Of a DNA stretch of 64,000 nt, positions 5,058 through 52,524 are shown one piece after another; the stretch's first letter is position 1; every line of letters starts with the position of its first letter. A model generated the notes under the pieces. That model did not search any database and was not told the DNA's origin. It saw only the letters and a program-made list of their open reading frames with translations. The stretch comes from an uncultured Nitrososphaerota archaeon. GTDB taxonomy: Archaea > Thermoproteota > EX4484-205 > JAAOZO01. Where the stretch lies: NCBI GenBank assembly GCA_964408285.1, contig CAYOYV010000004.1:1-64000 (forward strand), read 5' to 3'. The translations under genes were made by a program, and so were the position numbers.

Positions 5058-5143
5058 GCGCGCGCAATGGAGCCAGAGCGGAGCGTCTGGGATGCTGTTC
5101 TTAAATAACTAATCTAGGCATCAGATACAGGGGACGAATTCGT

Positions 5144-9761: not shown

Positions 9762-10724
9762 CTATAAGGGCTGGGTTTTAGATTTTCTTGTGCCGGTTCT
9801 GATTAGATCGTTGACTTCTGAAATGTTTTTCGGGACTTCCATCGGACCGAAGTTTCTGACCTTTATGGCGCCAACGGCGTTTGCAAAAACCAACATGTCT
9901 CTCATCGGCAACTGTCTCAGATAAGCGTGAAGTGCTGCTGCGTCAAATGCGTCCCCAGCACCGGTGGGGTCTCCTTCCGGAACGTCAAAAGCACGTTCGT
10001 ATACTTTCCCCTCCTTCGTTAACGCTATTGATCCCCTTTCCCCTAACTTCAGTATCAGATTCCTGACTCCGTACTTGAATACGCGCTCCGCAGCTTCTTC
10101 CATCGTTCTCTCTCCAGTAAGATCGAACAGCTCATTTGCCGAGGGCATCACTATCTCGGAAGCTCTCATTAGGGGCTCAGATATCTTTCTTATCATTCGA
10201 GGTTCTATGAGTTCGGCCCTTAGATTCGGGTCGTAGGTCACTATCATTCCAGATCTGGACGCTATCCTGACTGCTTTATAGCAGGCCTCCCTCATGGTTT
10301 TTCCGAGAGAGAGGGCTGAACCCATTACGTGCAAGACCTTGAACGACTTCACGTAGTCCTCCTTCACATCACCAGATTTGACTTGGCCCGCTGCGGCTTG
10401 TTTCAGGTGGAATATGAAGTCTCTCTTTCCGTCGGCATAGTACATCACGAAAGCCGTCCCGGTCGTATATCCTTCTCTAGTGAGCAGGTATCTGATGTCC
10501 ACGCGGTCCTCCCGCAATCTTCCGCTAATGAGCCTACCAAAATCGTCATTCCCAATAGCCCCTATTATTCCGGATTCCAATCCCAACCTTGCAGCCGTAT
10601 CAATGAAGATCGCTGGGGCCCCGCTCGGAAATGGCCCAGCATAATCTCCTAATCGGTTATGAGGAGAATCCCTCGTCTTCTTGACGAACTCCACCAGAAC
10701 CTCTCCTATTGTGAGAATGTCCAT
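9762..10724 (-). CDS. PfkB-family sugar kinase
   Basis: GPFPSGAPAIF, IGNDDFG, YDPNLR and DPTGAGDAF (PfkB signature 2). Confidence 0.92.
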   Translation of the reverse strand: MDILTIGEVLVEFVKKTRDSPHNRLGDYAGPFPSGAPAIFIDTAARLGLESGIIGAIGNDDFGRLISGRLREDRVDIRYLLTREGYTTGTAFVMYYADGKRDFIFHLKQAAAGQVKSGDVKEDYVKSFKVLHVMGSALSLGKTMREACYKAVRIASRSGMIVTYDPNLRAELIEPRMIRKISEPLMRASEIVMPSANELFDLTGERTMEEAAERVFKYGVRNLILKLGERGSIALTKEGKVYERAFDVPEGDPTGAGDAFDAAALHAYLRQLPMRDMLVFANAVGAIKVRNFGPMEVPKNISEVNDLIRTGTRKSKTQPL

Positions 10725-10822
10725 CCTACATCACCCTGACTTGAGCGCATACTATACGTTGAATCTCCCTTTTATTATTTCCAGTGGGTGTTTTTCCTGT
10801 TCCACGAGGTCAAAAGACAAAA

Positions 10823-10830
10823 TTTATACA
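10823..10830 (+). promoter_or_regulatory. Probable TATA box (leaderless transcript) for the LLM gene
   Basis: TTTATACA preceded by a purine-rich BRE-like tract, about 23 nt before ATG 10853. Confidence 0.55.
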
Positions 10831-10852
10831 CTTTGAGGCCCAATCGAGCCGG

Positions 10853-11869
10853 ATGGAACGCAGGCCCAAATTCGGAATATATCTTCCTTCCTTCAGCAAG
10901 AAGTATGGCTCTAGGGACTTATACGAATACAACGTGAAAGCAGCAAAACTAGTTGAGGCCTCTGGGATGGACTCCATATGGGCCGTGGATCATCTACATG
11001 CATTCGACACCGTAGAGAAGGTGGAGAAATCGCTCAATATCCTAGAGTCGATGACCTTGCTTTCCGCTCTTGCTGCTTCCACGGATAAAGTGTTGATAGG
11101 CACATCAGTTCTGAGTTCGCCCTTTCGCAATCCTGCCCTTCTAGCCAAGATGGGGGCGACAGTTGACGTGATATCAAATGGAAGACTCGTTCTGGGAATG
11201 GGCGCAGGGTGGAGAAGGGACGAGTTCGAGGGATATGGGTTCCAATGGGAAAGAACTGCCCAAAGACTCGGCAGAACCGCCGAGGCCATAGATATAGTGA
11301 AGAAATTCTGGACTCAGTCTGTCGTAGATCACGAAGGAGAATTCTATAAGATAAGAGGTGGACAACTTTGGCCGAAACCAATCCAAAGGCCGCGACCGAA
11401 GATAGTTTTCGGAGGAGTGGGCTTCAAGGCAATGGAACTGGCGAAACACACGGATGGTTGGGTTGCTCCCCCTCTCAACGCAGATGATCTCAAGCAGAGG
11501 ATCAGCATGTTCAACGAATGGGGAATCAATCCGAACGAGTTTGAAGTCATATACGAGTTCTTCACTTCAGTTGACACAAGTAGGGAGTCCGCGTATGAAA
11601 GGTCAAAGGACTCTTTGGAAAGGTGGTTCGGGGATCCGTTACCAGAAATCTTGGCATATGACACTAGGGTTCAGTTGCCCCATGGAATATCAGTCAGGTA
11701 TGGCGCAATTGTGGGCAGCGTCGAGGATTGCGTCGATGGAGTAGTCAAATTCGCTAAAGCAGGCGTCAATCACTTTGAGCTTCACTTCATGCCGCTTGAG
11801 GACTCCATGGACGGGACAAATCTGTACAGCCAGAAGGTCATCCCGCTTGTGAATGAACAGCTCGAGTGA
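10853..11869 (+). CDS. LLM-class (luciferase-like) flavin/F420-dependent oxidoreductase
   Basis: DSIWAVDH, FRNPALLAKMGATVDVISNGRLVLGMGAGW and PKPIQRPRP. Confidence 0.9.
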   Translation: MERRPKFGIYLPSFSKKYGSRDLYEYNVKAAKLVEASGMDSIWAVDHLHAFDTVEKVEKSLNILESMTLLSALAASTDKVLIGTSVLSSPFRNPALLAKMGATVDVISNGRLVLGMGAGWRRDEFEGYGFQWERTAQRLGRTAEAIDIVKKFWTQSVVDHEGEFYKIRGGQLWPKPIQRPRPKIVFGGVGFKAMELAKHTDGWVAPPLNADDLKQRISMFNEWGINPNEFEVIYEFFTSVDTSRESAYERSKDSLERWFGDPLPEILAYDTRVQLPHGISVRYGAIVGSVEDCVDGVVKFAKAGVNHFELHFMPLEDSMDGTNLYSQKVIPLVNEQLE

Positions 11870-11872
11870 GCC

Positions 11873-12949
11873 TCAGGGTTTGAGCACTATTTTGATTGCT
11901 CTATGCTCTTCTTTCTTGAGGAGCATGTCAAATGCCTCTCTATACTCTTCAAGCTTCATTACATGAGTTATGAATGGCTTCACTCTCACATCGCCTTTCG
12001 CCAACAACGCGACCCCGACAGCGTACTCCCTGTATAGATTGTTTGCAGAGCTGGTCAAACTCCTTTCTCCTGCTATATCGGTGAGTTGAAGGTCAACCTT
12101 AGTAGGGGTCACAGCCAACAGGACAAACCTACCTCCCCTGGAAAGGGCCCTTAAGCCAGCCTTGACGGTCTTCTCACTTCCGACAGTGTCGAACACGACG
12201 TTCGCTCCCAAGCCTCCCGTAATGCTCAATATGCTCTCTGCGATGTCTCCAGCATTCCTTGCGTTTACGACATGATCTGCTCCCAAATCCCTGGCTATCT
12301 CCAGCGGGACTTCCCAGGTATCTACGGCTACGGTCTGTACAGCTCCCCTCGCCTTGGCAACCTGAAGAGACATCAAACCAATTGCCCCGCTCCCGATTAC
12401 TGCCACGACGTCAGCCGGAGACACAGCTGCTCTACCGTTTGCATGAACTGCTACCGCAAGACCGTCCAGCTGAGTCGCCTCTTCGTAAGACACGTTGTCT
12501 GGTATCGGATGAGCCTTGTCGGCCCATATCTGCATATACTCAGCATATCCTCCCGGTGGATACTCAATATCTCTCCATCTCCCATCATGTCCGATGTGCA
12601 ATGTATCTTCACAGAGATTCGGAAGATCATTTCTGCAGTAATAGCATTCCCCGCACCCTCTGAAGGCTATGGCCCCAACTCTCTCTGAAATCCTATGTCT
12701 TCCAACACGAGTACCTTCCTCAATGATATCCCCTGAGACCTCGTGACCCAATATGAAACTCTTAGTCTCCTTCAAATCCTTTCCGAGCGTATGGAGGGAC
12801 CAAGGATTTTCCCCCAAGTAGTATCTTACATCGCTTCCACAGATGCCAACTGCTCTAACCTGAATGATGACTTCGTCCTCTCTTGGTTTTGGCCTAGGTA
12901 CGTCAACCATCTCGAGTTCCATCGGTCTCCTGAGAACCACTGCTCTCAT
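11873..12949 (-). CDS. Zn-dependent dehydrogenase (MDR family)
   Basis: GICGSD, LGHE, CGECYYC..C and GSGAIG. Confidence 0.9.
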   Translation of the reverse strand: MRAVVLRRPMELEMVDVPRPKPREDEVIIQVRAVGICGSDVRYYLGENPWSLHTLGKDLKETKSFILGHEVSGDIIEEGTRVGRHRISERVGAIAFRGCGECYYCRNDLPNLCEDTLHIGHDGRWRDIEYPPGGYAEYMQIWADKAHPIPDNVSYEEATQLDGLAVAVHANGRAAVSPADVVAVIGSGAIGLMSLQVAKARGAVQTVAVDTWEVPLEIARDLGADHVVNARNAGDIAESILSITGGLGANVVFDTVGSEKTVKAGLRALSRGGRFVLLAVTPTKVDLQLTDIAGERSLTSSANNLYREYAVGVALLAKGDVRVKPFITHVMKLEEYREAFDMLLKKEEHRAIKIVLKP

Positions 12950-13009
12950 GATGAATCACATATATCGAACCAAATCGATATAAATTTGCATTTGTCGCAT
13001 TGCTTTGCC

Positions 13010-14152
13010 ATGAAGAAGGAAAGAACCGCGCTAATCCTTGACGAAATGAAGCGCTTGAATCTAGACGCAGTTATATTGAGGAATCCTGAGAACGTTCTCT
13101 TTTCGACAGGATATTGGCCTGTCCTTGGCTGGTCTTGCTTCGTATTGAGGAGAGATGGAGGTTCGAGCATTCTTATCCCTGAGAGCGAATTAGGCTTCCT
13201 AGGTCGCAACTCTGTTGACGAGGTTGAAATTCTGAAAGGTGAAACATTATTCGAGGTGTATGATCCCGCAAGATGTCTGGCGCAGTTCATACGGGAGCTG
13301 GGCATAAAGGGCGGTTCAAGAGTTGGGTGCGAGCTATCGATGGAGAGTTTGGCGGTAACCCACGTGCCGGAACTGTCTTTCACCGGGTATAGGACCTGCC
13401 GGATGCTGAGTGAAGAAACAAAATCAGAATTGGTGGATTTCTCGAATTCCCTACATGAGATGAGAAGAATAAAGAACCAAGGTGAGATAGAAAAGATATG
13501 CACGGCATGCGAAATAGCTGCTCTGGGTCTTGAGAAAGGGTTAGAGGAACTGAGGGAAGGAATGACGGAGGCTGAACTCGCCTCGACAATAGAAAAGGCA
13601 GTGTATTCGAAGGGGCTCGGCTACAAGGGAGTTAGGAGAATCAGGGGGTTTGCCTATGTCATGTCAGGAGTGAATGGTTCTTCTGCCAACCTTCCTTTCG
13701 ATATCTCCTCCCAGAGGAGAATATCCAGAGGAGAATCTATACTCATAGAACTGAATGTTCAGGCTGATGGATTTTGGGCCGACCTAACTAGAACTTGGTT
13801 CATTGGAGCCCCAAGCAATGAACTGAAGAATCGTTACGAAGCCGTCCTAGAAGCAAACGAGCAGGCCACAAGATTCGCTGCTGACGGTGTGGCTGTAAGA
13901 GAAGTGGACAAAGTCGCCAGAGATGTGATATCTTCGAAGGGTCTAGCCGATGAGTTCAACCATAGGCTTGGACATGGGATCGGATTCAGATTACACGAGC
14001 CTCCTGATCTCCATCCCGTTTCAAACGAAGTCCTAAGGGAAAAAATGACATTCACAATTGAGCCAGGAGTCTACGGAAAGTATTATGGCATAAGAGTCGA
14101 AGACGTTGTTCTCGCCACAAGAACGGGTGGATCGAAGCTATCCAGACCGTGA
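13010..14152 (+). CDS. Xaa-Pro peptidase, M24B family
   Basis: ADLTRT, HRLGHGIG..HEPP, FTIEPGVY and GIRVEDVV; start ATG 13010 follows a TATA-like TATAAA. Confidence 0.9.
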   Translation: MKKERTALILDEMKRLNLDAVILRNPENVLFSTGYWPVLGWSCFVLRRDGGSSILIPESELGFLGRNSVDEVEILKGETLFEVYDPARCLAQFIRELGIKGGSRVGCELSMESLAVTHVPELSFTGYRTCRMLSEETKSELVDFSNSLHEMRRIKNQGEIEKICTACEIAALGLEKGLEELREGMTEAELASTIEKAVYSKGLGYKGVRRIRGFAYVMSGVNGSSANLPFDISSQRRISRGESILIELNVQADGFWADLTRTWFIGAPSNELKNRYEAVLEANEQATRFAADGVAVREVDKVARDVISSKGLADEFNHRLGHGIGFRLHEPPDLHPVSNEVLREKMTFTIEPGVYGKYYGIRVEDVVLATRTGGSKLSRP

Positions 14153-14194
14153 TGATATATCCTCGAACTTAATCCTGTCTAGCCCGAGTGTTCA

Positions 14195-15241
14195 TCACCG
14201 GGTCTGTGCAATGCCAAGATGAAGCTTGGTCAGGAATGCCTGATCAACCGTGAGTCCAAGTTCCTTTGCAGCCAATATCACAGCTCCTTCAACTGGCCTG
14301 AGCCTTGGCCTGATGAACTTAACCTTCGACATGGACCCAAGAACCTTTTCCTGAAACGGCGCTATGATGAAAGAGGCGAAATTCTCGAATATTCCTCCCA
14401 TCATTGCCACTTCAATCTCCTGATTCAAGACCCCAAGTTGCCTCGCGACTGCGATGACTGCTATGCCCAATTCCTGGCCTGCACGAAGGATGAGCTGTAA
14501 TGCAGCTTTGTCCCCTTCCTTGGCTGCGTCTAGGACCAGTGGGGCTAGAGCCGCGATTTGATGTCTTTCCATGCCCTTGACATAGACCTTCGTTACAAGA
14601 TCTTCGATCGAGGAAAGACCAAGATGAGCCACAAACCTCCTGGCAAGTGCCGTGGGTTCATCTCTTCCATCGTATGATCTTAGTGCAAGTATCATGCCCT
14701 TGCGCGCTATGTCGTAGGCGCTCCCCTCATCTCCGAGTATTGGACCCCAACCTGTGGACCTGGCGTATCTGCCGGAAGAATTCATACCGTAACAGATGGA
14801 CCCAGTCCCGGCAATGACTACGATCCCCGGCTTCCCCGCAGTAGCTCCGATGAGAGAGATGACTCCATCGTGTACGATTACATTCCTGTGGGATATCTGG
14901 ATCCTCTCAAGCACTTCCTGCATCATCCTTTTTCCCTCGGGATTCCCGGACCCCGCAGCGCCTACGCAAACGATCAGGGCCTTTTCTTGGGAAGTGCGCA
15001 TTCGAATGGCTTCAGCTATGGCCTTCTGAATCGATTCGCTTGCCCTATCTACACCAACGTACAATATGTTGGAGGGGCCCCCTTTACCTTCTCCAAGAAC
15101 GGTCCCATCCAATGCCACTAGGAGGCAATGCGTCTCAGTTCCTCCGCCCTCGATCCCAATCAGGACTCCGCCGCGTTCAGACTCAGACAAGATCCAACGG
15201 AAACTACTGTTGGAGTTTATTTTATTTTCTCTCAATGGCAC
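14195..15241 (-). CDS. BadF/BadG/BcrA/BcrD-family N-acetylhexosamine (GlcNAc/MurNAc) kinase; true start may be TTG ~15190
   Basis: IGIEGGGTET, VIAGTGS, GWGPILGDEGSAY and IAALAP motifs. Confidence 0.85.
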   Translation of the reverse strand: MPLRENKINSNSSFRWILSESERGGVLIGIEGGGTETHCLLVALDGTVLGEGKGGPSNILYVGVDRASESIQKAIAEAIRMRTSQEKALIVCVGAAGSGNPEGKRMMQEVLERIQISHRNVIVHDGVISLIGATAGKPGIVVIAGTGSICYGMNSSGRYARSTGWGPILGDEGSAYDIARKGMILALRSYDGRDEPTALARRFVAHLGLSSIEDLVTKVYVKGMERHQIAALAPLVLDAAKEGDKAALQLILRAGQELGIAVIAVARQLGVLNQEIEVAMMGGIFENFASFIIAPFQEKVLGSMSKVKFIRPRLRPVEGAVILAAKELGLTVDQAFLTKLHLGIAQTR

Positions 15242-15275
15242 GCACCATCCGAGAAAGCTTGGGATAGTTTCGTGA

Positions 15276-16442
15276 CTAAGGATAGAGCAAGTATCGTTTC
15301 CGGTTCGACAGAAATTCCTTCAAATCCCCTTCCCAATCCTTCGCAATTTCCTCAGGGTCACGGTTCTCTACTAATCCTTTCCTTATCTCATCAGTCCCAG
15401 CCAAGAGGTCGAAGCTGTAATCCTTGTCCGTCTTACCTCTTCTGAATTCCATCTTGTCACGAAAAAGATCCATTATGGCCTTGATGAGCGTCAGACCGGT
15501 CAGAACGGTTCTGTAACTGTTTCTATCATATACGTGAAGTTGAACACCTCCGCATACTTCCTTGGCGTATTTCCCGAACATCGGTGTGAAACGAATCGTG
15601 CGGAATGCAACTCCTGGAAGGCCCCATTTGACCATCCTATCGCAAAGCCTGAAGCCGTCTATCCAGGGTGCTCCTATCATTTCAAAGGGCCTAGTCGTTC
15701 CCCTTCCTTCTGAGACGTTTATCCCCTCGATTAGGCAGGTACCCGGGTATACAGTCGCGGTTTGTAAGGTCGGCATATTAGGCGAAGGCGCTACCCAAGG
15801 AAGCCCGGTATCATCGTACCACATGTCCCGCCTCCATCCTTCGGCCCTAATCACACTCAGCTCACAATTGATTCCGAACCACTCATTGAACATCGTCGCT
15901 AGTTCACCCATCGTCATTCCATATCTTATCGGGATCGGTCTTTCGCCAACGAAAGATTGGTAATTCTCTCTCAGGAGATTGCCCTCAACCGTAAGCCCGT
16001 TTATGGGATTTGGCCTGTCTAGCACTATGAATCCAAGATCGAGTTCCGCAGCGGCCTTCATGCACCTGTTCATTGTTGCGATGTAGGTATAGAATCTGGC
16101 GCCTACGTCCTGTATGTCGAATACTAACGCATCAATATCCCTTAGCATGTCCGGGGTGGGCCTATAGTGTTCTCCATACAGACTATAGACTGGCACGCCG
16201 GTCCTGCTGTCGGTGAATGAACCTATTGATGATCCATCTTGAACATCGCCTCTAATCCCGTGCTCTGGTCCGAAAAGGGAGGTAAGTCTTATCTTAGGAT
16301 GGCAGTGAAGCACATCAACAGTCGAACACAAGGAAGAGGTGATTCCAGTGTGGTTTGTGACCAGGCCTATCCTCTTTCCTTCGATGATATCAATCTTGTC
16401 TCTGAGTAATTGATCAATGCCGAACTCAACGGGTCGATTCAT
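15276..16442 (-). CDS. namZ: DUF1343 / NamZ-like exo-beta-N-acetylmuramidase (YbbC family)
   Basis: GLVTNHTG, LFGPEHGIRG, SLYG, FDIQDVGARFYTY, VLDRPNP, RYGMTMGELA, WVAPSPNMPT and SEGRGTTRPFE; start ATG 16442, no signal peptide. Confidence 0.9.
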   Translation of the reverse strand: MNRPVEFGIDQLLRDKIDIIEGKRIGLVTNHTGITSSLCSTVDVLHCHPKIRLTSLFGPEHGIRGDVQDGSSIGSFTDSRTGVPVYSLYGEHYRPTPDMLRDIDALVFDIQDVGARFYTYIATMNRCMKAAAELDLGFIVLDRPNPINGLTVEGNLLRENYQSFVGERPIPIRYGMTMGELATMFNEWFGINCELSVIRAEGWRRDMWYDDTGLPWVAPSPNMPTLQTATVYPGTCLIEGINVSEGRGTTRPFEMIGAPWIDGFRLCDRMVKWGLPGVAFRTIRFTPMFGKYAKEVCGGVQLHVYDRNSYRTVLTGLTLIKAIMDLFRDKMEFRRGKTDKDYSFDLLAGTDEIRKGLVENRDPEEIAKDWEGDLKEFLSNRKRYLLYP

Positions 16443-16573
16443 TAGCTGGTCATCTTTACCAGAGCGTGATGAGGAATTAAGAGTTCGCGCGCACCCCAAA
16501 TCGAGTCATAGTTCATGCTATCTATTCTGTGAATTCGAGAAGGTTGATAAACACAGACACTGGTTTTCGGGCC

Positions 16574-17125
16574 ATGGGAGTGGTCAAGAGAGTAGACTAC
16601 TATTTTGGTGAACCCGGTCCGCAAAACACAGAGACAGTATTTGAAGCTGTGAAGGAGAGACTAGAACATACCGGGGTAAAGACCGTTGTTATTGCAAGCG
16701 ATAGCGGCGAGACTGCAGTCAAGCTATGTGACTCGATCAGGGAGCCAGGTATCAATATCATTGCTATCTCTTGGAAGAAGATGAATCCGGAGAACGTGCA
16801 TAAGCTGAAGGAGAAAGGGGTTGAGGTCGTACAGGAATCCCACACGCCTCTAAGCGGCAAGGACGCGAAAGTTATGGCGTACACATACTACACTTTAGGC
16901 CAAGGGTTCAAGGTTGCGGTGGAACTTGCCATGATAGTTGTAGACATGGAATTGATCAAAGCAGGGCAAGACGTCTTGAGCATAGCAGGAACAGGTAACG
17001 GAGCCGATACGGCAGTCTTGCTAAAGGCATCTTCCACAAAGGACATTATTGGACCTGACACTGCGAATCGGCTTGAGGTAAAGGAAATTGTGGCAATGCC
17101 AAGAGTGAAGAAATGGTGGGACTGA
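16574..17125 (+). CDS. Stand-alone pyruvate kinase C-terminal (PK_C-like) domain protein
   Basis: YFGEPGPQNT, VVIASDSGETA, GQGFKVAVE and IAGTGNGADTA (conserved archaeal family). Confidence 0.8.
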   Translation: MGVVKRVDYYFGEPGPQNTETVFEAVKERLEHTGVKTVVIASDSGETAVKLCDSIREPGINIIAISWKKMNPENVHKLKEKGVEVVQESHTPLSGKDAKVMAYTYYTLGQGFKVAVELAMIVVDMELIKAGQDVLSIAGTGNGADTAVLLKASSTKDIIGPDTANRLEVKEIVAMPRVKKWWD

Positions 17126-17269
17126 ATTCCCAATCCTGACATGCTTGTATGCGAATGCGCTCGCGCGCTATAGTCGATACTGGGCAAAGCGTGGTTAGCA
17201 AGTAATGCGAACTCCTGGACAGGCTTATCGGATTTATATCTCGAAGATGTGACGTTTCGCGCGCGACCA

Positions 17270-18793
17270 ATGTTTGCGAAGGACTTCCTATGGGGGACTT
17301 CGACGGCCGGGTTTCAGTTCGAAATGGGAGACCCAACAAGAAAGAGCTTGGATCCAAACACGGACTGGTTCAAATGGGTACACGATGCCGAGAATATACG
17401 GAAAAGGGTTGTCAGCGGTGATTTTCCAGAAGATGGAATCAACTACTGGGAACTCTACAATTCGGATCACGACCTTGCGAAGGGCCTTGGGATGAATGCC
17501 TTCAGGCTTGGCATTGAGTGGAGCAGGATTTTCCCAGCTTCAACTACAGGCTTCGATGTGGATGTTGAAATAGCCTCTGATGGCGGAGTGGCTCGCGTGG
17601 ATCTTGACCTAAGCGACCTTCAGAAATTGGAATCGCTGGCCAATGTCGAAGCCCTGAAACACTATGAGCTGATAATAGATGACCTCAGGGAAAAAGGACT
17701 GAAGGTCATAGTCTGCCTTAATCATTTCACCTTGCCCCTTTGGATCCACGACCCCATAGCAGCGAGAGACTCAAGACTCAGAAAAGGACCGAGAGGTTGG
17801 TACGACAGGGCTACCGTGGTCGAATTCGCAAAGTATGCTGCATTCTTAGCTTGGAAGCTCGGAGATAGGGTGGACATGTGGGCTACAATCAACGAGCCCA
17901 TGGTGGTCGCAGAGATCGGATACCTTCTCGGAGTCGAAGGCTTTCCGCCTGGGATAAGATATGATCTGAGCGCGTTCAAAAGAGTCGCCAAGAATTTGGC
18001 AACAGCACACTCGAGGGCGTTTGACATGATAAAGAAATTCGATACGCATAGGTCCGATGCTGATAGCCCTCATCCAGCATGGGTCGGCATTATTCACAAC
18101 GTATTCCCTGTCGCCCCAAAAGAAACGTCGAATGAAAAGGATGTTAAGGCAGCCCAATTGCTGGATAGAATGCACAATACCTTTATTGTGGAAGCCGTAA
18201 CATCGGGTTGGCTTGAAGCAGACTTCAATGGAATCAGAGATGACGTCAGGAAATATTTGGGAGATAGGTTGGATTGGCTCGGCGTCAATTATTACACGCG
18301 AATCGTAGTAAGGGGACAATCATCGTTGTTGGCCAGAATCTTCGCGGGCCTGCCGGTGATGCCAGAACTTGTCCCGGGATATGGCTATGCCTGTAAGCGT
18401 AACGACAAATCGCTTGACGGGAGACCCACTTCTGATTTCGGTCAGGAGTTCTATCCGGAGGGTATCGGCGAAATCCTAGTTAATATGTCGAAGTATGGAA
18501 GACCGATGTATGTGACCGAGAATGGAACGGCCGATGATAGGGACGAACTAAGGCCTCGTTATTTGCTGGAGCTTTTGAAAATAATGGAGACTGTCATTGA
18601 AGAGAAGCGGTTGGACGTCAGAGCGTATCTGCATTGGGCACTAACAGACAACTACGAGTGGGCTGAGGGGTTCAGAATGCATTTCGGTCTTTTCAAAGTC
18701 GATCTAGAGACCAAGAGGAGAATTCCAAGAGGGAGTGCCGACATATTTCGAAGAATTGTGGAATCTGGAGGCACCGATGGAATTCAAGTCTGA
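17270..18793 (+). CDS. GH1 beta-glycosidase (archaeal BgaS/LacS-like)
   Basis: GFQFEMG, RLGIEWSRIFP, TINEP (acid/base), VTENG (nucleophile) and DNYEWAEG. Confidence 0.93.
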   Translation: MFAKDFLWGTSTAGFQFEMGDPTRKSLDPNTDWFKWVHDAENIRKRVVSGDFPEDGINYWELYNSDHDLAKGLGMNAFRLGIEWSRIFPASTTGFDVDVEIASDGGVARVDLDLSDLQKLESLANVEALKHYELIIDDLREKGLKVIVCLNHFTLPLWIHDPIAARDSRLRKGPRGWYDRATVVEFAKYAAFLAWKLGDRVDMWATINEPMVVAEIGYLLGVEGFPPGIRYDLSAFKRVAKNLATAHSRAFDMIKKFDTHRSDADSPHPAWVGIIHNVFPVAPKETSNEKDVKAAQLLDRMHNTFIVEAVTSGWLEADFNGIRDDVRKYLGDRLDWLGVNYYTRIVVRGQSSLLARIFAGLPVMPELVPGYGYACKRNDKSLDGRPTSDFGQEFYPEGIGEILVNMSKYGRPMYVTENGTADDRDELRPRYLLELLKIMETVIEEKRLDVRAYLHWALTDNYEWAEGFRMHFGLFKVDLETKRRIPRGSADIFRRIVESGGTDGIQV

Positions 18794-18980
18794 AGGAATG
18801 ATTCGCTGTAATCTGATTTGCTAGCCGATCGGAGGATGAGGGCCAAAAGGAGGAGTAAGTGAGGCATGTTCTGCTATTTTTCACACAATATCGACCTTAA
18901 TGCGAACAAGAGATAGGGACAGAATCATTAGTCGGGGGTCCATTCGTTGAGACGATTAGAACCCGGCGATAGGAGGGATA

Positions 18981-19895
18981 TTACCGGCTCTCGCTTTCCG
19001 TATGGAACAACCTCGGTTCGAGCATACCCTCCTTCATCACTGCGAACTCGAAGTCTTGTGAAGTCGTAGCTGCCCCGAAATTCCCATGTCGATCCAGGGC
19101 CAAGACAGCAATGTTCTCGTATCTCTTTTCGGTTGCGACTATGTCTTTTATCGCCCCCATTGCGGCTTCTTGGGCGTTATTGCCGTCTTGGATTCCCCTT
19201 ACTACCATGCGAGAGACATTATGAATCATGATGTTCTCCCCGGACCCCGTTGCCACTGCGGCTCCGAACTCATTGGCGACTAGACCGGAACCAATTATCG
19301 GAGAATCTCCAATTCTTCCTGGCATCTTGAATGCTATCCCGCTCGTGGAGGTTCCTGCAACCAGACTTCCGTCTTCGCCCAGCGCCACCACGCCAACAGT
19401 GTCATGACTAAAGATGCCCAAGGCCCTGTTCTTCAACCAGAGGTCCAAGGTTCCCTCTTTAGGTTCTAGATTGAGAGCCACATTCAAGCGTTTCTTCAAC
19501 TCCTTCTCCACATCGGGCTGTAACCTAGCCTGCGGCAGACAAAGGCCATAGTACTCTGCCAATCTATTAGCGCCGTCTCCTACGATCATCACATGCGGAG
19601 TTTCCTTCATGACCTTCCTCGCAAGAGAAATGGGATTCTTGACATTGCACACAGCCCCAACAGAGCCAGCCTGCAGAGTTCTTCCATCCATTATCGCTGC
19701 ATCCAGTTCTATGATCCCATCCATGTTTGGGTAGCCTCCCAGTCCGACTGATTTATGCGTCCCGAGAACATCGTTCTCGACTTCTCTCACTGCCTCCTCA
19801 ACCGCGTCTAAAGGATCGCCTCCTGATTTCAGGATAGGCCAACCTGCGGCAATCGCCTTCATCCCAAAAGACCACGTCGCGGCCATTACCTTCAT
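18981..19895 (-). CDS. Ntn-hydrolase, glycosylasparaginase-like (N4-(beta-N-acetylglucosaminyl)-L-asparaginase / isoaspartyl peptidase family)
   Basis: N-terminal ATW, SVGLGGYP, LDAAIMDG, HD|TVG autoprocessing site and GRIGDSPIIGSG; start approximate. Confidence 0.85.
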   Translation of the reverse strand: MKVMAATWSFGMKAIAAGWPILKSGGDPLDAVEEAVREVENDVLGTHKSVGLGGYPNMDGIIELDAAIMDGRTLQAGSVGAVCNVKNPISLARKVMKETPHVMIVGDGANRLAEYYGLCLPQARLQPDVEKELKKRLNVALNLEPKEGTLDLWLKNRALGIFSHDTVGVVALGEDGSLVAGTSTSGIAFKMPGRIGDSPIIGSGLVANEFGAAVATGSGENIMIHNVSRMVVRGIQDGNNAQEAAMGAIKDIVATEKRYENIAVLALDRHGNFGAATTSQDFEFAVMKEGMLEPRLFHTESESR

Positions 19896-20033
19896 TTTAT
19901 GCCTTACAGGCATTTGCTTGCGGATAAAAGAATTCGGAATCGGAATCAATGCGGTTGACCTCAAGTATAAGGTGAAAAGCTCTTTCTGGCAAGCTTCAGA
20001 AAAACCTAAATCGAAACATGATGTCGAATCGAC

Positions 20034-20768
20034 GTGCGTGCGAGTGAGCTATTCCGAAGGTCAAAGACAAGGGACAAGATGAAGACTGTTTTCGACGAAG
20101 GTTACTTTGCGATGAGGACGATCTGGACAAGGAAGGAGGGCGAATTCGTTATCAAGAGGAATCCCAACAAGGAGAAGGCTATTACCGTTTTCAATGGAAC
20201 GACGCGACTTCATTTGATGCCATCAGAAGCTGAATTTGTACTTGATGAGAAAGATGTCTGTTATGTCCCTGTAGGGGAGAAGGTAGAAATCCACGAGGTC
20301 GAAAGAGATTCCTTAGTCATAGTGATCGAAGCCCGTTCTAACTTGGAGACCGCTCCCTATTGCGTGGAATTCGGTGAAGTGAAAGGCGAACTTAGAGGAG
20401 AACTAGGATACAGAAGAATGGTCTACACTGTTCTAGGTGAGGACAAGCCGGCCGGCAGGCTAATCGTGGGTTTCACAGAGGGTTACAATGGAGAATGGAC
20501 TAGCTATCCTCCTCACAAACATGATGACATGTTGGAGGTATATCTCTTCTATGGTCTAGGAGATTATTATGGACTCCAAGTAGTAGAAAGTGGGAATCAT
20601 GTCAAAGCTCTTACAGTGAGAGACTGGGATTCGGTTCTGATCAGGAGAGGCTACCATCCGAATGTGTCTGTTCCGAAGTGCAGTGTAAAATACATGTGGG
20701 CCCTCTACCCGTTCAAGGAGAGAAAATTGAGACCAGAGACTGACCCTAGGTATTCGCAGAGCCAATAG
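20034..20768 (+). CDS. iolB: IolB/KduI-family 5-deoxy-glucuronate isomerase (cupin)
   Basis: GEWTSYPPHKHD, EVYLF and RGYHP motifs. Confidence 0.8.
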   Translation: MRASELFRRSKTRDKMKTVFDEGYFAMRTIWTRKEGEFVIKRNPNKEKAITVFNGTTRLHLMPSEAEFVLDEKDVCYVPVGEKVEIHEVERDSLVIVIEARSNLETAPYCVEFGEVKGELRGELGYRRMVYTVLGEDKPAGRLIVGFTEGYNGEWTSYPPHKHDDMLEVYLFYGLGDYYGLQVVESGNHVKALTVRDWDSVLIRRGYHPNVSVPKCSVKYMWALYPFKERKLRPETDPRYSQSQ

Positions 20769-20834
20769 AGCCGTGCGAGGCCTCCTAGTTTCCCCAGAGC
20801 TCAGCAGATGCCAATTGGCTTCAGCGGTTTACCG

Positions 20835-21695
20835 CTAACCACTGAGCTTTGAGATTATCCTAAGTAGGTTTTGGATGCATATGCTCGAAGCATACTCTCC
20901 CATTTCAGAAAAACTGTCTCCGGATGGGAGGACCAACTCCTCTTCCGCCAACCTTTTCGGTCTCCAATGGGTCTCAAGCGAAACATAGCCCTTGTAGTCA
21001 TCGAGCAACAATGCTTTCAACTGGCCTTCTATGTTGACTTCGCCCTCCCCTATCGGCAGCAACTCACTCCTTTCGTCCTTCCTCACTCCATCCTTGAGGT
21101 GTACATGAACGACCTTGTCCCTGAGAAGCTCGTAGCCAAATGGAAAGGGCTGTTCCGTATCTGGATCCATTATGTCATTTCCCGGATCCCATACCGCCCG
21201 AACGGATTCCGAATCCAAGGCGTCAAGGAAAGTGGCTAATTTCCTCGCATTCGTCACGAACGTGGAGGGTTCGTTTTCGATTCCGAGGACCATTCCATAA
21301 TCCTCAATCAGGCGGACAGGGTACTTGAATTTCTCGAGTATCACAGGTAAGTGCTCTTCAAATCCTCCTTTCCTCCAGAAGGTGAATCCCCTTATGATCC
21401 GGCAATCGAGAGCTTTTGCCATCTCAATGCTTTTCTCCAGTATCTTCAGGTTCAGCGCGTACTCTTGTTCGCCAAACAATTCTGCCTTGAAGAACGGCGA
21501 GGCAACGGCCGAAACCTTTAGGTCATTCTCCTCGATTATGCTCCTGATTTGCTTGGTTTTCTCGACGAGCTCTAGGAACTGCAGACCCCAAGCACTCCTT
21601 ATTTCCAGCCCCTGCAACCCATATCTCCTCGCGAATCTCGCAGCCGTCACGAGATCCTGAGAAACTTCATCCGAGATAACCGACAGTCTGAACAT
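20835..21695 (-). CDS. Sugar phosphate isomerase/epimerase (xylose-isomerase-like TIM barrel)
   Basis: ISDEVSQD, GIENE, WDPGN, HVHLKD and SLETH metal ligands. Confidence 0.85.
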   Translation of the reverse strand: MFRLSVISDEVSQDLVTAARFARRYGLQGLEIRSAWGLQFLELVEKTKQIRSIIEENDLKVSAVASPFFKAELFGEQEYALNLKILEKSIEMAKALDCRIIRGFTFWRKGGFEEHLPVILEKFKYPVRLIEDYGMVLGIENEPSTFVTNARKLATFLDALDSESVRAVWDPGNDIMDPDTEQPFPFGYELLRDKVVHVHLKDGVRKDERSELLPIGEGEVNIEGQLKALLLDDYKGYVSLETHWRPKRLAEEELVLPSGDSFSEMGEYASSICIQNLLRIISKLSG

Positions 21696-21863
21696 ACGCT
21701 AACTTTCAAGGAACATCCCTTCTGCCTAATATTGCTTTTCGGTACGGGGCACTTTCCTCTACTGGGGTGATTCAAGGCTCATCGGTTGCCCAGGGGAACC
21801 GCGAACACATGAATCACGAAAGAAATCGCTAAATGAAAGAGAAATATCCCATAGATGTAGTGT

Positions 21864-23042
21864 TTGGCGCGATTGAGAAGGATAATAGTCCTGAGAAACG
21901 CACTGATCATCAACCCTCATTCTGAGACTTATGGAGATATTGAGATAGAGGATGGAATCATCAGAAGAATCGGTCACCTGAGCGATATCAACCATGACGC
22001 AACGGTCGTAGATGTTGGAGGAAGAGCAACGATGCCTGGCTTCATAGATGTCCATGTCCAGGGAGCCGGCGGGTCCGATGTTCTGGATGCCGATCCGGCA
22101 GCGCTGAATACCATATCGCGGGCGTGTGCCAAGTTCGGAGTGACAGGCCTCCTTGCAACAACAATCTACCGGCCGGAGAAGGAGAACAGACATATCTCAA
22201 ACGTCGTAGAATTTTCCAGGAACATGGCGGGAGCCAGAATTCTGGGGATCCACCTCGAGGGGCCGTTCATATCAATCGAACAAAGGCGAATGATTCACGA
22301 ATCGGCGGTGACGACTCCATCAATCGAACTCGTCAGGCATATCATTCAGGAGTGCGGAGGAATGCTGAGAATGATGACAATCGCTCCTGAACTACCAGGA
22401 GCGGACAAGATAATTAACTACCTTTCAGCCAGCTCAATCGTCCCTTCCTTCGGGCATTCATCAGCAACTTATGAGAAATCGATTGAGGCATTTGAGATGG
22501 GCGTCGGTCACGTTACTCATCTTTTCAATGCGATGGAACCAATGCACCATCGTTCTCCAGGTCCCATACCGGCGGTATTCGAATCGAAGACAGTGACGGC
22601 GCAGATAATCTCGGATGGAATACACGTTCATCCAGCCATGGTTCGACTTGCTGCAGACAATCTTGGCGAGGACAGATGCGTCCTGATAACGGACGCCGTA
22701 AGGTCATTAGGGCTTCCAGATGGAGAATACGAGTACGATGGAAGGAAATTCATAGCTTCCGGAGGAGTCGCGAGGTACATAGATGGCACACTGATAGGCA
22801 CAACATTGGGGATGAACGAACTTGGCAGGCGGTTCTTGACGTTCACTGGATGGGGGTTGAAAGCTCTGGCCAAGGCAACTTCCTGGAATCCAGCTAGACT
22901 CCTTGGAATGCACAAGTTGAAGGGAAGCATCGAGGTCGGAAAGCATGGCGACTTGGTAGTGCTTAATCCGGATTTCGAAGTATGGCTGACCATTGTCATG
23001 GGAGACATTGTTTACAGTGGAACCGGAGCAAATGGGCTCTGA
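21864..23042 (+). CDS. nagA: N-acetylglucosamine-6-phosphate deacetylase
   Basis: PGFIDVHVQG, GIHLEGPFI, TIAPE, GHSSAT, THLFNAM, DGIHVHP and LITDA. Confidence 0.93.
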   Translation: MARLRRIIVLRNALIINPHSETYGDIEIEDGIIRRIGHLSDINHDATVVDVGGRATMPGFIDVHVQGAGGSDVLDADPAALNTISRACAKFGVTGLLATTIYRPEKENRHISNVVEFSRNMAGARILGIHLEGPFISIEQRRMIHESAVTTPSIELVRHIIQECGGMLRMMTIAPELPGADKIINYLSASSIVPSFGHSSATYEKSIEAFEMGVGHVTHLFNAMEPMHHRSPGPIPAVFESKTVTAQIISDGIHVHPAMVRLAADNLGEDRCVLITDAVRSLGLPDGEYEYDGRKFIASGGVARYIDGTLIGTTLGMNELGRRFLTFTGWGLKALAKATSWNPARLLGMHKLKGSIEVGKHGDLVVLNPDFEVWLTIVMGDIVYSGTGANGL

Positions 23043-23163
23043 GAAGGTTTTCCCCTACCTCAGGGTCCTTGGACAGCAAGAACTCAGATCAACGAGGTCT
23101 TAGCCTTGTCTATTTCCGTCTGGGAATAACCTAATTTACCCTCGATTACAGGAAATAACAGAG

Positions 23164-23706
23164 ATGGGACAGGAGTTCAGCTCCTACGAGGAGATAGTTC
23201 AGAAAGTGCTTTCAGAATACAACAGAAGCCCAAAGGGCTGGCACGTTCTGCTGACCAAAAGTGAGGGACTGGGCCACAACTTGTACATCTTCGGGCCCGA
23301 GGGAATGACGGCCATGTTGAAGCTAGAGAGCATCTACAGGCCAAATCCAATAGCGATAGGAGTTGAGGTGACAGACGAAATGCATGGCCTGAGGCAGATC
23401 GTCCGAAGGCAAACCCACCCATTTGGGATAAGGCCGATTCCAGACGGCCTAATGGGAAAGGTATTGGACAGCATCAGAAGCGGAGTTCCTCCTCGGGCCG
23501 ATTTAATCGCCAGAATAATGGAGAGTGATCCAGTTTCGCAAGAGGCCATCAAGACGCAAGTGGCAATTCAAGGGCCGATCCTCCATGTCCCAAGCCCCCT
23601 TCCCTTTGAATACGCATCAGCCAAACAAAGGGAATTGGATTCCAAACTACAGAGGGAGTTGCAAAGACTTCTCAACGAAAGATACGGGGACATGTACATT
23701 GGGTAG
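23164..23706 (+). CDS. Hypothetical protein, probably a conserved archaeal family
   Basis: Clean 180-aa ORF with ATG start and helical C-terminus; no motif assigned. Confidence 0.6.
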   Translation: MGQEFSSYEEIVQKVLSEYNRSPKGWHVLLTKSEGLGHNLYIFGPEGMTAMLKLESIYRPNPIAIGVEVTDEMHGLRQIVRRQTHPFGIRPIPDGLMGKVLDSIRSGVPPRADLIARIMESDPVSQEAIKTQVAIQGPILHVPSPLPFEYASAKQRELDSKLQRELQRLLNERYGDMYIG

Positions 23707-23808
23707 TTGACTTCCTAGACCTTATGGCGATCGATTGAACGCACTCCCTACCACACGCGCTTTAGGGATTCCAGACGTCTAGCTATCTATGCAGACAAGG
23801 GTTATGAG

Positions 23809-24822
23809 TCACTCGTGCCAGATCAGTATTACTCCCATAGCTTCGGATCTGTCTTCTAGCAATTGCCGATAAATCGCAGGGGCTTCATCATAGGGCAGGC
23901 GATGAGTTACAAGGGGGCTGATGTCCAGTTCCTTATCTGCGACTAGGTCGAAGAATAACTCGGCATGTCGCCTATTAGTCCAAGGATTGTCTGGAGTCGC
24001 TACTGGCGGATGGGACCTGTTGTGCGCTCCGATTATGGTGTAACTTGGGTAATTACAGAGATCATGAAAATCAAACATGGTTGGTCCTTTAGGACTGCTT
24101 AGAAGTACAAATCTACCTTGGTCTCTCATGCACCTGAATTCCTCGGGAATTATCTTCTGATTACCTGTCACTTCGAAGGCAACGTCAACCATTCTCCCCA
24201 TTGTTTCCCTTTGGACGACAGACCGAACATCCTCTCTCGTGGGATTCAATCCGATTACGGATGGATCCTTAGGCAGCATGCCCAGTCTAGCATCAGCAAT
24301 GTCTATTACGAATACGGGCCTAGCGCCGCATAGTCGACATACCCTTGCAGTGAATTGACCAAGTAATCCGGCTCCGTAGACAGCTACCGACTCCCCCAAC
24401 CGAACATCCGCCCGCCTTACCCCATTCGTGACTATCTCGGCGATCGTGAAGAAGGCCGCCTCATCATCTGAAATCTGATCACTTATTGGAATAAGGGATT
24501 CCATCGGTACGGTCACGAATAGTGCATGGGAGCTGCGAGTCGCCACCCTCTTTCCAATCCAATCTCTATTGACTTCCTCTCCGACGGCAACGACCTCACC
24601 AACGTTGTCATACCCGGGTACGAAGGGGAACCTTGCATATCTGGACCAATAGGACTCCTTTGGGAACTCGCCGCTGAGTATGGTCAACTCTGTCCCGGTG
24701 CTTATGAGTGTTCTTCGAGTTTTGATGAGGACATATCCCTTTTCAGGAAGTGGAATAGTTCGTCTTTCAATCACTACCTTGCCCGGTTCGAGAAAAACAA
24801 CGGTAGGATTATCCTCTTTCAT
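23809..24822 (-). CDS. MDR-family oxidoreductase (ISxGTE subgroup, no structural-Zn cysteines)
   Basis: LISTGTE, PFVPGYDNVG, GAGLLG and EVTG. Confidence 0.82.
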   Translation of the reverse strand: MKEDNPTVVFLEPGKVVIERRTIPLPEKGYVLIKTRRTLISTGTELTILSGEFPKESYWSRYARFPFVPGYDNVGEVVAVGEEVNRDWIGKRVATRSSHALFVTVPMESLIPISDQISDDEAAFFTIAEIVTNGVRRADVRLGESVAVYGAGLLGQFTARVCRLCGARPVFVIDIADARLGMLPKDPSVIGLNPTREDVRSVVQRETMGRMVDVAFEVTGNQKIIPEEFRCMRDQGRFVLLSSPKGPTMFDFHDLCNYPSYTIIGAHNRSHPPVATPDNPWTNRRHAELFFDLVADKELDISPLVTHRLPYDEAPAIYRQLLEDRSEAMGVILIWHE

Positions 24823-28507: not shown

Positions 28508-28617
28508 ATCGTAGTCAGAGGAGGACTTATAGCTCTTGCAGTTCCAGATCTGCCTCGGAGCCCTTTTGGATGAAGCGATATAAAGACAGGCGAGGCATTT
28601 CCCGTCGTGGTGTTCGG

Positions 28618-51396: not shown

Positions 51397-51552
51397 TCAG
51401 ATTAATCTTTGTCTGACGGATGGGGCCATGAGGATTTTCTGGCGGTTAGGAACTTTTCGCAGGGCCGAGCGCTTACCCCAAGCAATCAAGGGAAGAAAAG
51501 CATCCTTCAAACGCTTTTATGTGGATCGCTGTTAGTCCAAAGTGTAGAGATA

Positions 51553-52524
51553 ATGTCGGACATAAGAAAGATAGCTGTCGTGACCTCCGGCGGCGATGCC
51601 TCCGGAATGAATGCTTCGGTGAGATCCGTCGTCAGAATGGCCACCCGTGACGGGCTCGAGATAGTCGGAATCAATAGGGGATATACTGGCTTGGTCTACA
51701 ACGATGTTGTGCCATTGGACAGAACATCGGTAAGCGGTATCATCAACCTTGGAGGAACCATACTGAGATCTAGCAGGTGTCAAGAGATCAGGACAGAAGA
51801 AGGAGTGGAGCGGGCTAAGGATACTCTGGAGTACAATTCAATAGACGGACTAATAGTGATAGGGGGAGACGGTTCTTTCAGAGGAGCGCACGAGATAAGA
51901 CGCAAATCCGGGGTCCCGATGATAGGAATTCCTGCAAGCATAGACAACGACATCTACGGGGTTGATGAGACAATAGGCTTCGACTCGGCTGTCAATGTCG
52001 CCACAAGGGCCATAGACAGCCTGAGAGACACGGCATATTCTCACGAGAGAATGTTCATCGTTGAGGTGATGGGAAGGGAAAGGGGCTTCATAGCTCTTTC
52101 AGTGGGCATAAGCTGTGGAGCGGAATACGTCCTCGTACCAGAGATAAAGGAAGATCTGCAAAAGATATCCAATGAACTCAAGGACTCCGAGAAACGAGGG
52201 AAAAGATCCAACATAATAGTTATCGCAGAGGGATATGGAAACACTGCCGAGATAGCTCGGTATCTTCAGAGCAACACTGGGCTCGAAACTAGGGTCTCGA
52301 CAATAGGATATCTGCAGAGGGGCGGCTCTCCCTCAGCAAGAAGCAGAATGCTTGCGACCTCGTATGGGTCGAGGGCAATTCAAGAGCTTTTGAACGGTGA
52401 AACGGAAACTGTCGTGGGCCTTCAGGCAGGGGAGATAAAGACTGAACCGCTCTCCTTCGTGGCCCTCAGAAGAAAGGAATTGGATATGAAGTTGTATGAG
52501 CTTGCAAAGGAGCTTTCGTACTAG
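51553..52524 (+). CDS. pfkA: ATP-dependent 6-phosphofructokinase, bacterial PfkA type
   Basis: TSGGDASGMN, GGTILRSSR, IGGDGS, SIDND, IGFDSA, VEVMGR and GYLQRGG. Confidence 0.93.
   Translation: MSDIRKIAVVTSGGDASGMNASVRSVVRMATRDGLEIVGINRGYTGLVYNDVVPLDRTSVSGIINLGGTILRSSRCQEIRTEEGVERAKDTLEYNSIDGLIVIGGDGSFRGAHEIRRKSGVPMIGIPASIDNDIYGVDETIGFDSAVNVATRAIDSLRDTAYSHERMFIVEVMGRERGFIALSVGISCGAEYVLVPEIKEDLQKISNELKDSEKRGKRSNIIVIAEGYGNTAEIARYLQSNTGLETRVSTIGYLQRGGSPSARSRMLATSYGSRAIQELLNGETETVVGLQAGEIKTEPLSFVALRRKELDMKLYELAKELSY

Follow-up and report, generated by a model that had tools for sequence, protein, structure and literature searches.

The stretch of DNA analysed here, referred to as the window, comprises positions 1 to 64,000 of contig CAYOYV010000004.1 (assembly GCA_964408285.1) of an uncultured Nitrososphaerota archaeon. 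The contig, of which the window takes up the first 64 kb, measures 134.6 kb and belongs to a genome (G000) of 1.82 Mb that consists of 46 contigs and is estimated to be 93.7% complete with 2.6% contamination. Two adjacent genes on its minus strand are the subject of this work: a homologue of NamZ, of the exo-β-N-acetylmuramidase family GH171/DUF1343 (15276..16442, 388 amino acids), and, downstream of it, a MurK-like sugar kinase of the BadF/ASKHA type, termed here kin1 (14195..15241, 348 amino acids by the longest open reading frame). The initial annotation described a full-length NamZ without a signal peptide, co-oriented directly upstream of a BadF kinase, and this description is borne out by the exact coordinates, the Pfam matches and a hydrophobicity scan. 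The spacer from the NamZ stop to the kinase start (15242..15275, minus strand), read from the sequence, is 34 nt long when the longest kinase frame is taken. The true start of kin1 may lie up to ~25 codons further in, with orthologues starting 6-10 residues before the DGGG motif, and because of this uncertainty the gap is between 34 nt and ~100 nt. No terminator-like site was found between the two genes on the minus strand and, judged from this arrangement, they are probably co-transcribed; RNA datasets containing window positions 14100-16600 were not listed.

The window NamZ has the PF07075 + PF20732 architecture, and in a Pfam search of the window proteins both domains are matched end to end (NamZ_N: 300.4 bits, profile positions 1-203 of 203; NamZ_C: 186.4 bits, 2-152 of 152). 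In the PDB it matches 4k05 (337 bits) and 4jja (216 bits), and its PEHG and GRGTT motifs align with both of these B. fragilis structures. In the B. subtilis NamZ, the putative catalytic residue Glu92 was placed at the tip of strand 2 and Arg279 was described as an exposed residue of the C-domain (PMC8054146). E60 (PEHG) and R247 (GRGTT) of the window protein correspond to them at a constant offset of +32, a correspondence that is based on residue numbering; on this count the window NamZ keeps the putative catalytic Glu and Arg. Its start was placed at ATG 16442 and not at the upstream TTG 16499 because, among the ten closest homologues (the window's own protein excluded), nine are 388 amino acids long and the alignments of all ten cover the query completely (100%). 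The N-terminus is non-hydrophobic (top Kyte-Doolittle 15-residue mean of 0.97 in the first 60 residues), so no signal peptide is predicted. Homologues labelled as Clostridia, Blastocatellia and Nitrospina also lack one, and the leaderless form is thus not specific to archaea. The Bacillaceae homologues among the matches start with typical signal peptides, and the B. subtilis NamZ is a secreted enzyme (PMC8054146). Labelled bacterial sequences show 40-56% identity to the window NamZ, and the Bathyarchaeia homologues already carry the NCBI name 'NamZ domain-containing'.

A NamZ phylogeny was built in FastTree from 141 sequences, most of them unlabelled, without an outgroup. The archaeal sequences fall in at least four places of the tree. 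The query groups with NamZ1 and NamZ3 of G002, a genome of its own family, and with 21 unlabelled sequences (support 100), and a separate clade unites three families of the query's own order (support 95). As the backbone is weak (81-91) and the tree is unrooted, we draw from it no claims on donors or on the direction or number of transfers.

The kinase kin1 matches the BcrAD_BadFG family with 137.8 bits and, like NamZ, shows no signal peptide (top Kyte-Doolittle 15-residue mean of 1.05 in the first 60 residues). Its ATP motifs are intact, with EGGGT in place of the usual DGGG, followed by GTGS and MGG, and the His-Asp pair is visible in the alignments. In the PDB ranking, a clostridial kinase that acts on MurNAc (N-acetylmuramic acid) as well as on GlcNAc (N-acetylglucosamine), 8zo3, comes first (185 bits); the Sulfolobus hexokinase 2e2n follows with 136 bits, then human NAGK with 89 bits. 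Based on its gene context, kin1 is the best candidate for a MurNAc kinase in this genome and probably for a GlcNAc kinase as well.

The initial annotation also placed a NagA about 5 kb away, and this gene is indeed found 5.4 kb from the NamZ start (21864..23042, plus strand, 392 amino acids, Amidohydro_1); as an N-acetylglucosamine-6-phosphate deacetylase it scores 299 bits in TIGR00221, against a cut-off of 225.65. By itself such a distance is weak evidence, and the strong evidence comes from elsewhere in the genome and from relatives. The genome encodes MurQ (contig C1, L004:9993-10913; TIGR00274, 373.9 bits against 302), AnmK (C13; NF007148, 460.8 against 387) and NagB (C4, at ~102.7 kb, beyond the window; TIGR00502, 315.8 against 236.9). 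A NagZ-type GH3 protein is found on C1 (NF003740, 210.4 against 207), which in the PDB matches 6k5j with 257 bits and B. subtilis YbbD with 222 bits. Only 4 nt upstream of it, on the same strand, lies a gene for a β-lactamase-fold protein of the AmiE/PBP4B kind (PF00144, 160 bits; in NCBIfam it matches PBP4B best), and C5 carries an Amidase_2 protein (Pfam, 104.7 bits). These genes are spread over at least four contigs, and none of their listed products shows an N-terminal hydrophobic signal in the Kyte-Doolittle scan. The genome-wide search proposed in the initial annotation was therefore answered for MurQ, which is above its equivalog cut-off, and for a NagZ-type GH3, while the importer it also named was not found.

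MurQ acts on MurNAc-6-phosphate and AnmK on 1,6-anhydro-MurNAc, both of them sugars of bacterial murein. The NamZ-kinase pair is likely to be one module of a dispersed and wholly cytoplasmic breakdown of bacterial peptidoglycan amino sugars, and the suggestion that this archaeon may feed on bacterial wall debris by a cytoplasmic pathway gained in weight with the finding of leaderless MurQ, AnmK, NagB and GH3 NagZ. In such a pathway, wall fragments that are released by bacterial autolysins or by the lysozymes of other organisms would be imported by a carrier. GH3 NagZ would take off the terminal GlcNAc, and the AmiE/PBP4B-like serine hydrolase, the Amidase_2 protein or both would strip the stem peptide. 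NamZ would then cleave the MurNAc that is exposed at the non-reducing end, to be phosphorylated at C6 by the adjacent BadF kinase, which would probably act on GlcNAc too, while AnmK would phosphorylate 1,6-anhydro-MurNAc. MurQ would split off D-lactate to give GlcNAc-6-phosphate, from which NagA and NagB would produce fructose-6-phosphate, acetate and ammonium. The enzymatic activities, the order of the steps, the imported substrate and the specificity of the kinase are what we infer here from the genes present, their scores against thresholds, the missing export signals, and the clustering and co-occurrence observed across archaeal relatives.

Such co-occurrence was examined in 26 species genomes of the class, which are related and hence not independent. 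NamZ is present in 14 of them and MurQ in 16; both are found in 14, MurQ alone in two (57% and 77% complete), NamZ alone in none and neither in ten. Genus g6 has 17 genomes, eight with both genes and nine with neither, and in five of the eight the two lie within ~2-3 kb of each other. In a phylum sample of 151 genomes, 21 have NamZ; 13 of them belong to this class and the remaining eight to three further families, and MurQ was beside or near NamZ in three of the five genomes checked among those eight. The archaeal distribution of DUF1343 that the initial annotation wished to see mapped is accordingly wide: the family is widespread in this class and occurs in other archaeal families as well.

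The gene order itself recurs. A kinase adjoins NamZ in five of the nine NamZ loci of relatives that were examined, and given this recurrence the adjacency is more than chance; NamZ, a BadF kinase and MurQ are neighbours in four archaeal families. In G012 a GNAT-PIG-L-NamZ-kinase operon is divergent from MurQ (364 bits). G002 shows the order NamZ-kinase-NamZ, with a third NamZ adjoining a GH3 gene. In G033, from another family, NamZ is divergent from kinase-MurQ with overlapping frames, and in G095, which belongs to yet another family, kinase, MurQ and NamZ follow each other on the same strand of a 1.08-Mb contig, with NagZ convergent and AnmK ~5 kb away. A BadF gene also directly precedes MurQ in G001, G003, G005 and G007, and partly in G009. 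In the window's genome kin1 is linked to NamZ and not to MurQ; orthologous or paralogous BadF genes adjoin MurQ in G033, G095, G001, G003, G005 and G007. The flanks available for 11 bacterial loci with close NamZ homologues contain a BadF kinase in none, and the same search gave no archaeal loci. Taken across this class and several families of the phylum, cytoplasmic breakdown of bacterial murein sugars might be an established, largely lineage-inherited trait of whole groups of uncultured sediment archaea, a generalization that we hold with rather more doubt than confidence.

Some of these loci have further features. The three NamZ paralogues of G002 are found in a 1.3-Mb genome (L027:7877-11407, minus strand, and L031:9393-12555, plus strand) and recall the two Tannerella NamZ enzymes of differing specificity. 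The G012 operon (L028:8273-12030, minus strand) tightly joins a GNAT acetyltransferase and a PIG-L/LmbE-type deacetylase to NamZ and the kinase; in the window's genome the same GNAT-PIG-L pair (56% and 45% identity) lies elsewhere, on C5 (L059:4248-5958, minus strand) beside an M42 aminopeptidase, and one possible role concerns de-N-acetylated wall sugars. G012 also has an AmiE-like β-lactamase-fold gene convergent with AnmK (L063:7166-8161, minus strand). In G095 a β-lactamase-fold gene with a Pab87 octamerisation domain (L057:13048-14433, minus strand) is found ~4 kb from the kinase-MurQ-NamZ genes; the paper on the Pyrococcus Pab87 peptidase reportedly speculates on D-amino-acid peptides from bacterial walls. 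In the window's genome, a GH84 β-N-acetylglucosaminidase gene (C1, L004:4161-5948, minus strand, Pfam 356.9 bits) without a clear signal peptide lies ~4 kb from MurQ.

Two further BadF paralogues exist in the genome, and ROK kinases were not found in it. kin2 (C1, L004:9003-9974, plus strand) is located 19 nt upstream of MurQ and has lost all three glycine-rich ATP motifs, with HGDE for DGGG, DMRS for GTGS and GES for GG, while its orthologues beside MurQ in G001, G003, G005 and G007 keep them. By these substitutions kin2 has probably ceased to be a kinase. It may have become a pseudokinase in this lineage only, perhaps redundant given the intact kinase beside NamZ. kin3 (C3, L058:6591-7628, plus strand) is an intact BadF kinase (Pfam, 138 bits) that matches 8zo3 (153 bits) and 2e2n (145 bits) about equally. 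It stands in an unrelated context, between CutA1, NTPase and MFS genes on one side and an FAD oxidoreductase on the other, and could be a general hexose or GlcNAc kinase.

Several points weigh against the breakdown of murein sugars as proposed above, most of them with regard to the kinase. kin1 reaches no curated family cut-off (NCBIfam NagK_SO3507: 118.8 bits against 370), and the role of MurNAc or GlcNAc kinase could in truth belong to the intact kin3 on C3. The MurQ-adjacent kinase of G033 matches the hexokinase 2e2n with 135.6 bits against 123.6 for the clostridial MurK, and because this MurQ-coupled kinase is slightly closer to a hexokinase, similarity to MurK in the PDB is not diagnostic of specificity. 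The residue before the catalytic Asp of kin1 is His, as in the Sulfolobus hexokinase, and it was argued that a polar residue at this place disfavours MurNAc in the Tannerella enzyme (PMC10465942); the dual-specificity MurNAc/GlcNAc kinase 8zo3 has Asn there. The pocket position of the Tannerella MurK is S133-L135, where small Ser-Pro-Leu residues widen the pocket for the lactyl group (PMC10465942). At this position kin1 has the open motif T-G-W-G, as do 8zo3 and human NAGK, with no bulky Glu or His to block the pocket, a mapping made by eye from printed alignments. With regard to the other enzymes, NagZ clears its cut-off by 3 bits only, and the AmiE-like protein (122.7 bits against the PBP4B cut-off of 385) and the Amidase_2 protein (45 bits against the AmpD cut-off of 143) are assigned at family level only. 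The neighbours of the pair in the window are general glycan enzymes (GH1, GH29, GHL6 and Asparaginase_2) and not wall enzymes. In G077, which is closed, and G132, both nearly complete and of another family, NamZ is present and MurQ was not found at E <= 1e-30, so archaeal NamZ is not always tied to MurQ. A secreted murein hydrolase was not identified, with no dedicated search made. No importer was found either, MurP and MurT not having been searched, and the only candidate is an MFS gene two genes downstream of AnmK. This gene is not AmpG-like by NCBIfam and, like the ceramidase-like gene downstream of AnmK, it is not conserved beside AnmK in four relatives. A Mem_trans carrier gene is seen near NamZ in G001 and G003.

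One of the questions raised by these points is whether the pair acts on murein at all. The substrate could instead be hexosamine glycans of another origin, such as imported N-glycans, chitin-like material or the cell's own glycans, with NamZ as another kind of hexosaminidase and the kinase as a hexose or GlcNAc kinase of the Sulfolobus type. The run of leaderless general glycosidases around the pair (the GH1 BgaS-like protein, GH29 and GHL6) would fit this explanation, and so would the Asparaginase_2 protein, whose family includes glycosylasparaginases. It is also consistent with the likeness of the phylum's BadF kinases to the broad hexokinase 2e2n (136 bits), and with the NamZ genes of G077 and G132 that stand beside a SIS_2 gene and without MurQ. 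According to the Tannerella NamZ1/NamZ2 preprint, moreover, NamZ members differ in substrate specificity. Against it, all 14 NamZ genomes of the class have MurQ, the adjacency of NamZ, kinase and MurQ extends over four archaeal families, MurQ and AnmK reach equivalog cut-offs, and NamZ keeps its putative catalytic Glu and Arg; we consider a non-murein substrate unlikely. Another hypothesis is that these enzymes recycle a MurNAc-containing polymer made by the archaeon itself, as in bacteria the same enzymes turn over the cell's own wall (PMC8054146). MurB was found in none of the five genomes searched, and Mur_ligase_M gave no match in G000, G002 and G095 and a single weak match each in G012 and G033 (MurA, MurG and MraY were not searched, and G000 is 93.7% complete). 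From the missing MurB and Mur_ligase_M, there is no evident route by which this archaeon could make MurNAc or a murein-like wall, and a polymer of its own is very improbable. The word 'salvage' in the initial annotation can for the same reason be kept only in part: the use of murein sugars remains likely, while salvage into a wall does not fit an organism without MurB or Mur ligases, and catabolism or scavenging is the better term.

It could also be asked whether bacterial DNA was misbinned or wrongly joined into the archaeal genome, given the 46-contig assembly with its 2.6% estimated contamination, the identity of up to 40-56% to labelled bacterial NamZ sequences, and a NamZ family that has been called predominantly bacterial (PMC8054146). 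The same window and the 134-kb contig carry archaeal informational genes. Among the markers in the window are a proteasome subunit, aCPSF1/FttA with its KH domain, a tRNA-intron endonuclease, PTH2, a family-B DNA polymerase, FEN-1, UPF0179 and a CTP-dependent riboflavin kinase. The naming of the lineage depends on aCPSF1, whose nearest labels are Thermoproteota (69% identity for a partial sequence of 79% coverage; 46-48% for full-length ones), Brockarchaeota (48%) and Bathyarchaeota (43-48%). The genome yielded no small-subunit rRNA, and the window neither a tRNA nor an Rfam match. Nine sediment metagenome runs include half or more of the words sampled from window positions 14100-16600. In four sediment metagenome runs, one of them possibly the source, contigs cover 30 of 30 bins of positions 10000-24000 with 95-100% likeness, and no joints or loose ends were seen across this interval. 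The NamZ-kinase spacer is bridged in three of the four (X2 11731-15379, X5 15095-16644, X6 15068-15488), and single contigs span the peptidase-kinase-NamZ and NamZ-GH1 junctions on both flanks of the pair. The G+C content at third codon positions is 0.537 and 0.542 for the two genes against a window mean of 0.541 (standard deviation 0.025), and their codon usage is inside the distribution of the window. NamZ is also present in relatives, among them one with a closed genome of 2.08 Mb and one with a contig of 1.08 Mb, and the G033 locus is flanked by thermosome and β-CASP genes. In none of the markers, metagenome contigs, third-position composition and codon usage were signs of a chimera or of recent acquisition seen at the pair. 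There is no sign of a chimeric contig here, a point raised in the initial annotation, and a misbinned origin is extremely improbable.

The breakdown of murein sugars proposed here can be compared with several known systems. The recycling operon of B. subtilis has the order murQ-murR-murP-amiE-nagZ-namZ (ybbC), and NamZ was found to co-occur with MurQ in bacteria (PMC8054146). The archaeon shares with it the families of NamZ, GH3 NagZ, MurQ and the AmiE-like β-lactamase-fold protein, and the order of the β-lactamase-fold gene followed by NagZ is that of amiE-nagZ. In both, exo-enzymes that work from the non-reducing end would feed MurNAc to MurQ. In contrast, AmiE, NagZ and NamZ are secreted in B. 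subtilis, whereas all three are signal-less in the archaeon. There MurNAc enters phosphorylated through MurP, a transporter of the phosphotransferase system, in whose place the archaeon has an ATP-dependent kinase, and the archaeal genes are scattered in a host without a wall to recycle.

Based on fold, catalytic Asp and, as proposed here, a kinase route to MurNAc-6-phosphate, kin1 resembles the MurK enzymes of Clostridium acetobutylicum (8zo3) and Tannerella forsythia. The former is reportedly the subject of Reith et al. 2011. The likeness extends to gene order, as the kinase gene lies beside MurQ in archaeal relatives and Tannerella has murT-murK-murQ (PMC10465942, PMC5790795). As for differences, the identity is ~40%, estimated by eye from the printed alignment; the Tannerella MurK is not among the PDB matches of kin1 at E <= 1e-5, and the Ser-Pro-Leu of that enzyme is replaced by a motif of the GWG type, which human NAGK and 8zo3 have too. 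The Sulfolobus tokodaii hexokinase 2e2n is a BadF kinase of the same archaeal phylum, is the second-best structural match of kin1 and shares its His-Asp at the catalytic base. To our knowledge it has no link to NamZ or MurQ. This hexokinase would clash with the lactyl group, as argued in PMC10465942.

In the cytoplasmic muropeptide recycling of E. coli, fragments are imported by AmpG and processed by NagZ, AmpD, AnmK and MurQ. The archaeon resembles it in the proposed import of whole fragments and in a cytoplasmic NagZ, an Amidase_2-type amidase, AnmK and MurQ. It differs in that no AmpG-like permease was recognised, LdcA was found in none of five genomes, and the Amidase_2 protein stays below the AmpD cut-off. 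E. coli, as far as we know, has neither NamZ nor MurK.

As bacterial biochemistry, neither the kinds of enzymes nor the MurQ route is new; both are textbook knowledge. What sets the present case apart is the murein-free archaeal host, the all-cytoplasmic set of NamZ, NagZ and AmiE-like enzymes, and a kinase instead of a phosphotransferase system; this kinase, it seems, is a member of the BadF group native to the phylum. We found no published description of a NamZ/MurQ murein-sugar pathway in archaea in the open-access literature. The nearest reports are on transfers of NamZ, murQ and anmK into ciliates (PMC13198582) and a single sentence in which Bathyarchaeia carbohydrate esterases are called 'related to peptidoglycan degradation' (PMC13288992), and the word 'archaea' is absent from the founding paper on NamZ (PMC8054146).

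In sediments, peptidoglycan makes up a large and nitrogen-rich store of dead bacterial matter, and its anoxic consumers are poorly known. If the trait is as widespread as suggested above, archaea would regularly feed on the necromass of bacterial cell walls in anoxic sediments. The leaderless NamZ would imply that peptide-free oligosaccharides of the MurNAc-GlcNAc type are taken up by an archaeal carrier of a not yet recognised kind, and the phylum's BadF hexokinases, not bacteria, would be the source from which the MurNAc kinase was recruited. A complete intracellular route from muropeptides to fructose-6-phosphate in archaea without murein of their own would identify these as users of bacterial necromass, and it would give a substrate handle (MurNAc or 13C-peptidoglycan) for enriching lineages that were never grown. 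For enzymology, the leaderless NamZ variants and the MurQ-tied archaeal BadF kinases could show how MurNAc specificity arises.

Beyond the pair, the window contains a run of leaderless glycan enzymes at 4095-7330 and 17249-19964, with a GH29 fucosidase, a GHL6/GH42M protein, a GH1 BgaS-like glycosidase (515.7 bits against an equivalog cut-off of 475) and an Asparaginase_2 protein. Such a run suggests a broad intracellular processing of imported oligosaccharides. The GHL6/GH42M protein of 728 amino acids (5144-7330) has two paralogues on C2 and C3 (27-28% identity), and a GHL6 gene also lies beside MurQ in G012. We considered this protein as an exo-glucosaminidase of the Thermococcus type and rejected this, as the PDB search gave one weak fucosidase match (26 bits). 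An ATP-type phosphofructokinase (51409..52524, plus strand; PF00365, 342 bits), of the bacterial-type ATP/PPi kind in an archaeal genome, is a possible downstream user of fructose-6-phosphate, and its association with the pathway would be a loose one.

In G077 (L056:6832-8750, plus strand) NamZ directly follows the SIS_2 (PF13580) gene, and a SIS_2 protein encoded in the window at 28456-29370 (plus strand) falls into the same NCBIfam subfamily (NF002805, 230 bits). Such a protein may serve as the partner instead, as an isomerase or etherase of sugar phosphates. In G001 (L029:3555-4721, plus strand) the large subunit of a type III RuBisCO is encoded directly upstream of NamZ, with a Cas12f1-like/TnpB gene (TNB domain) ~5 kb away.

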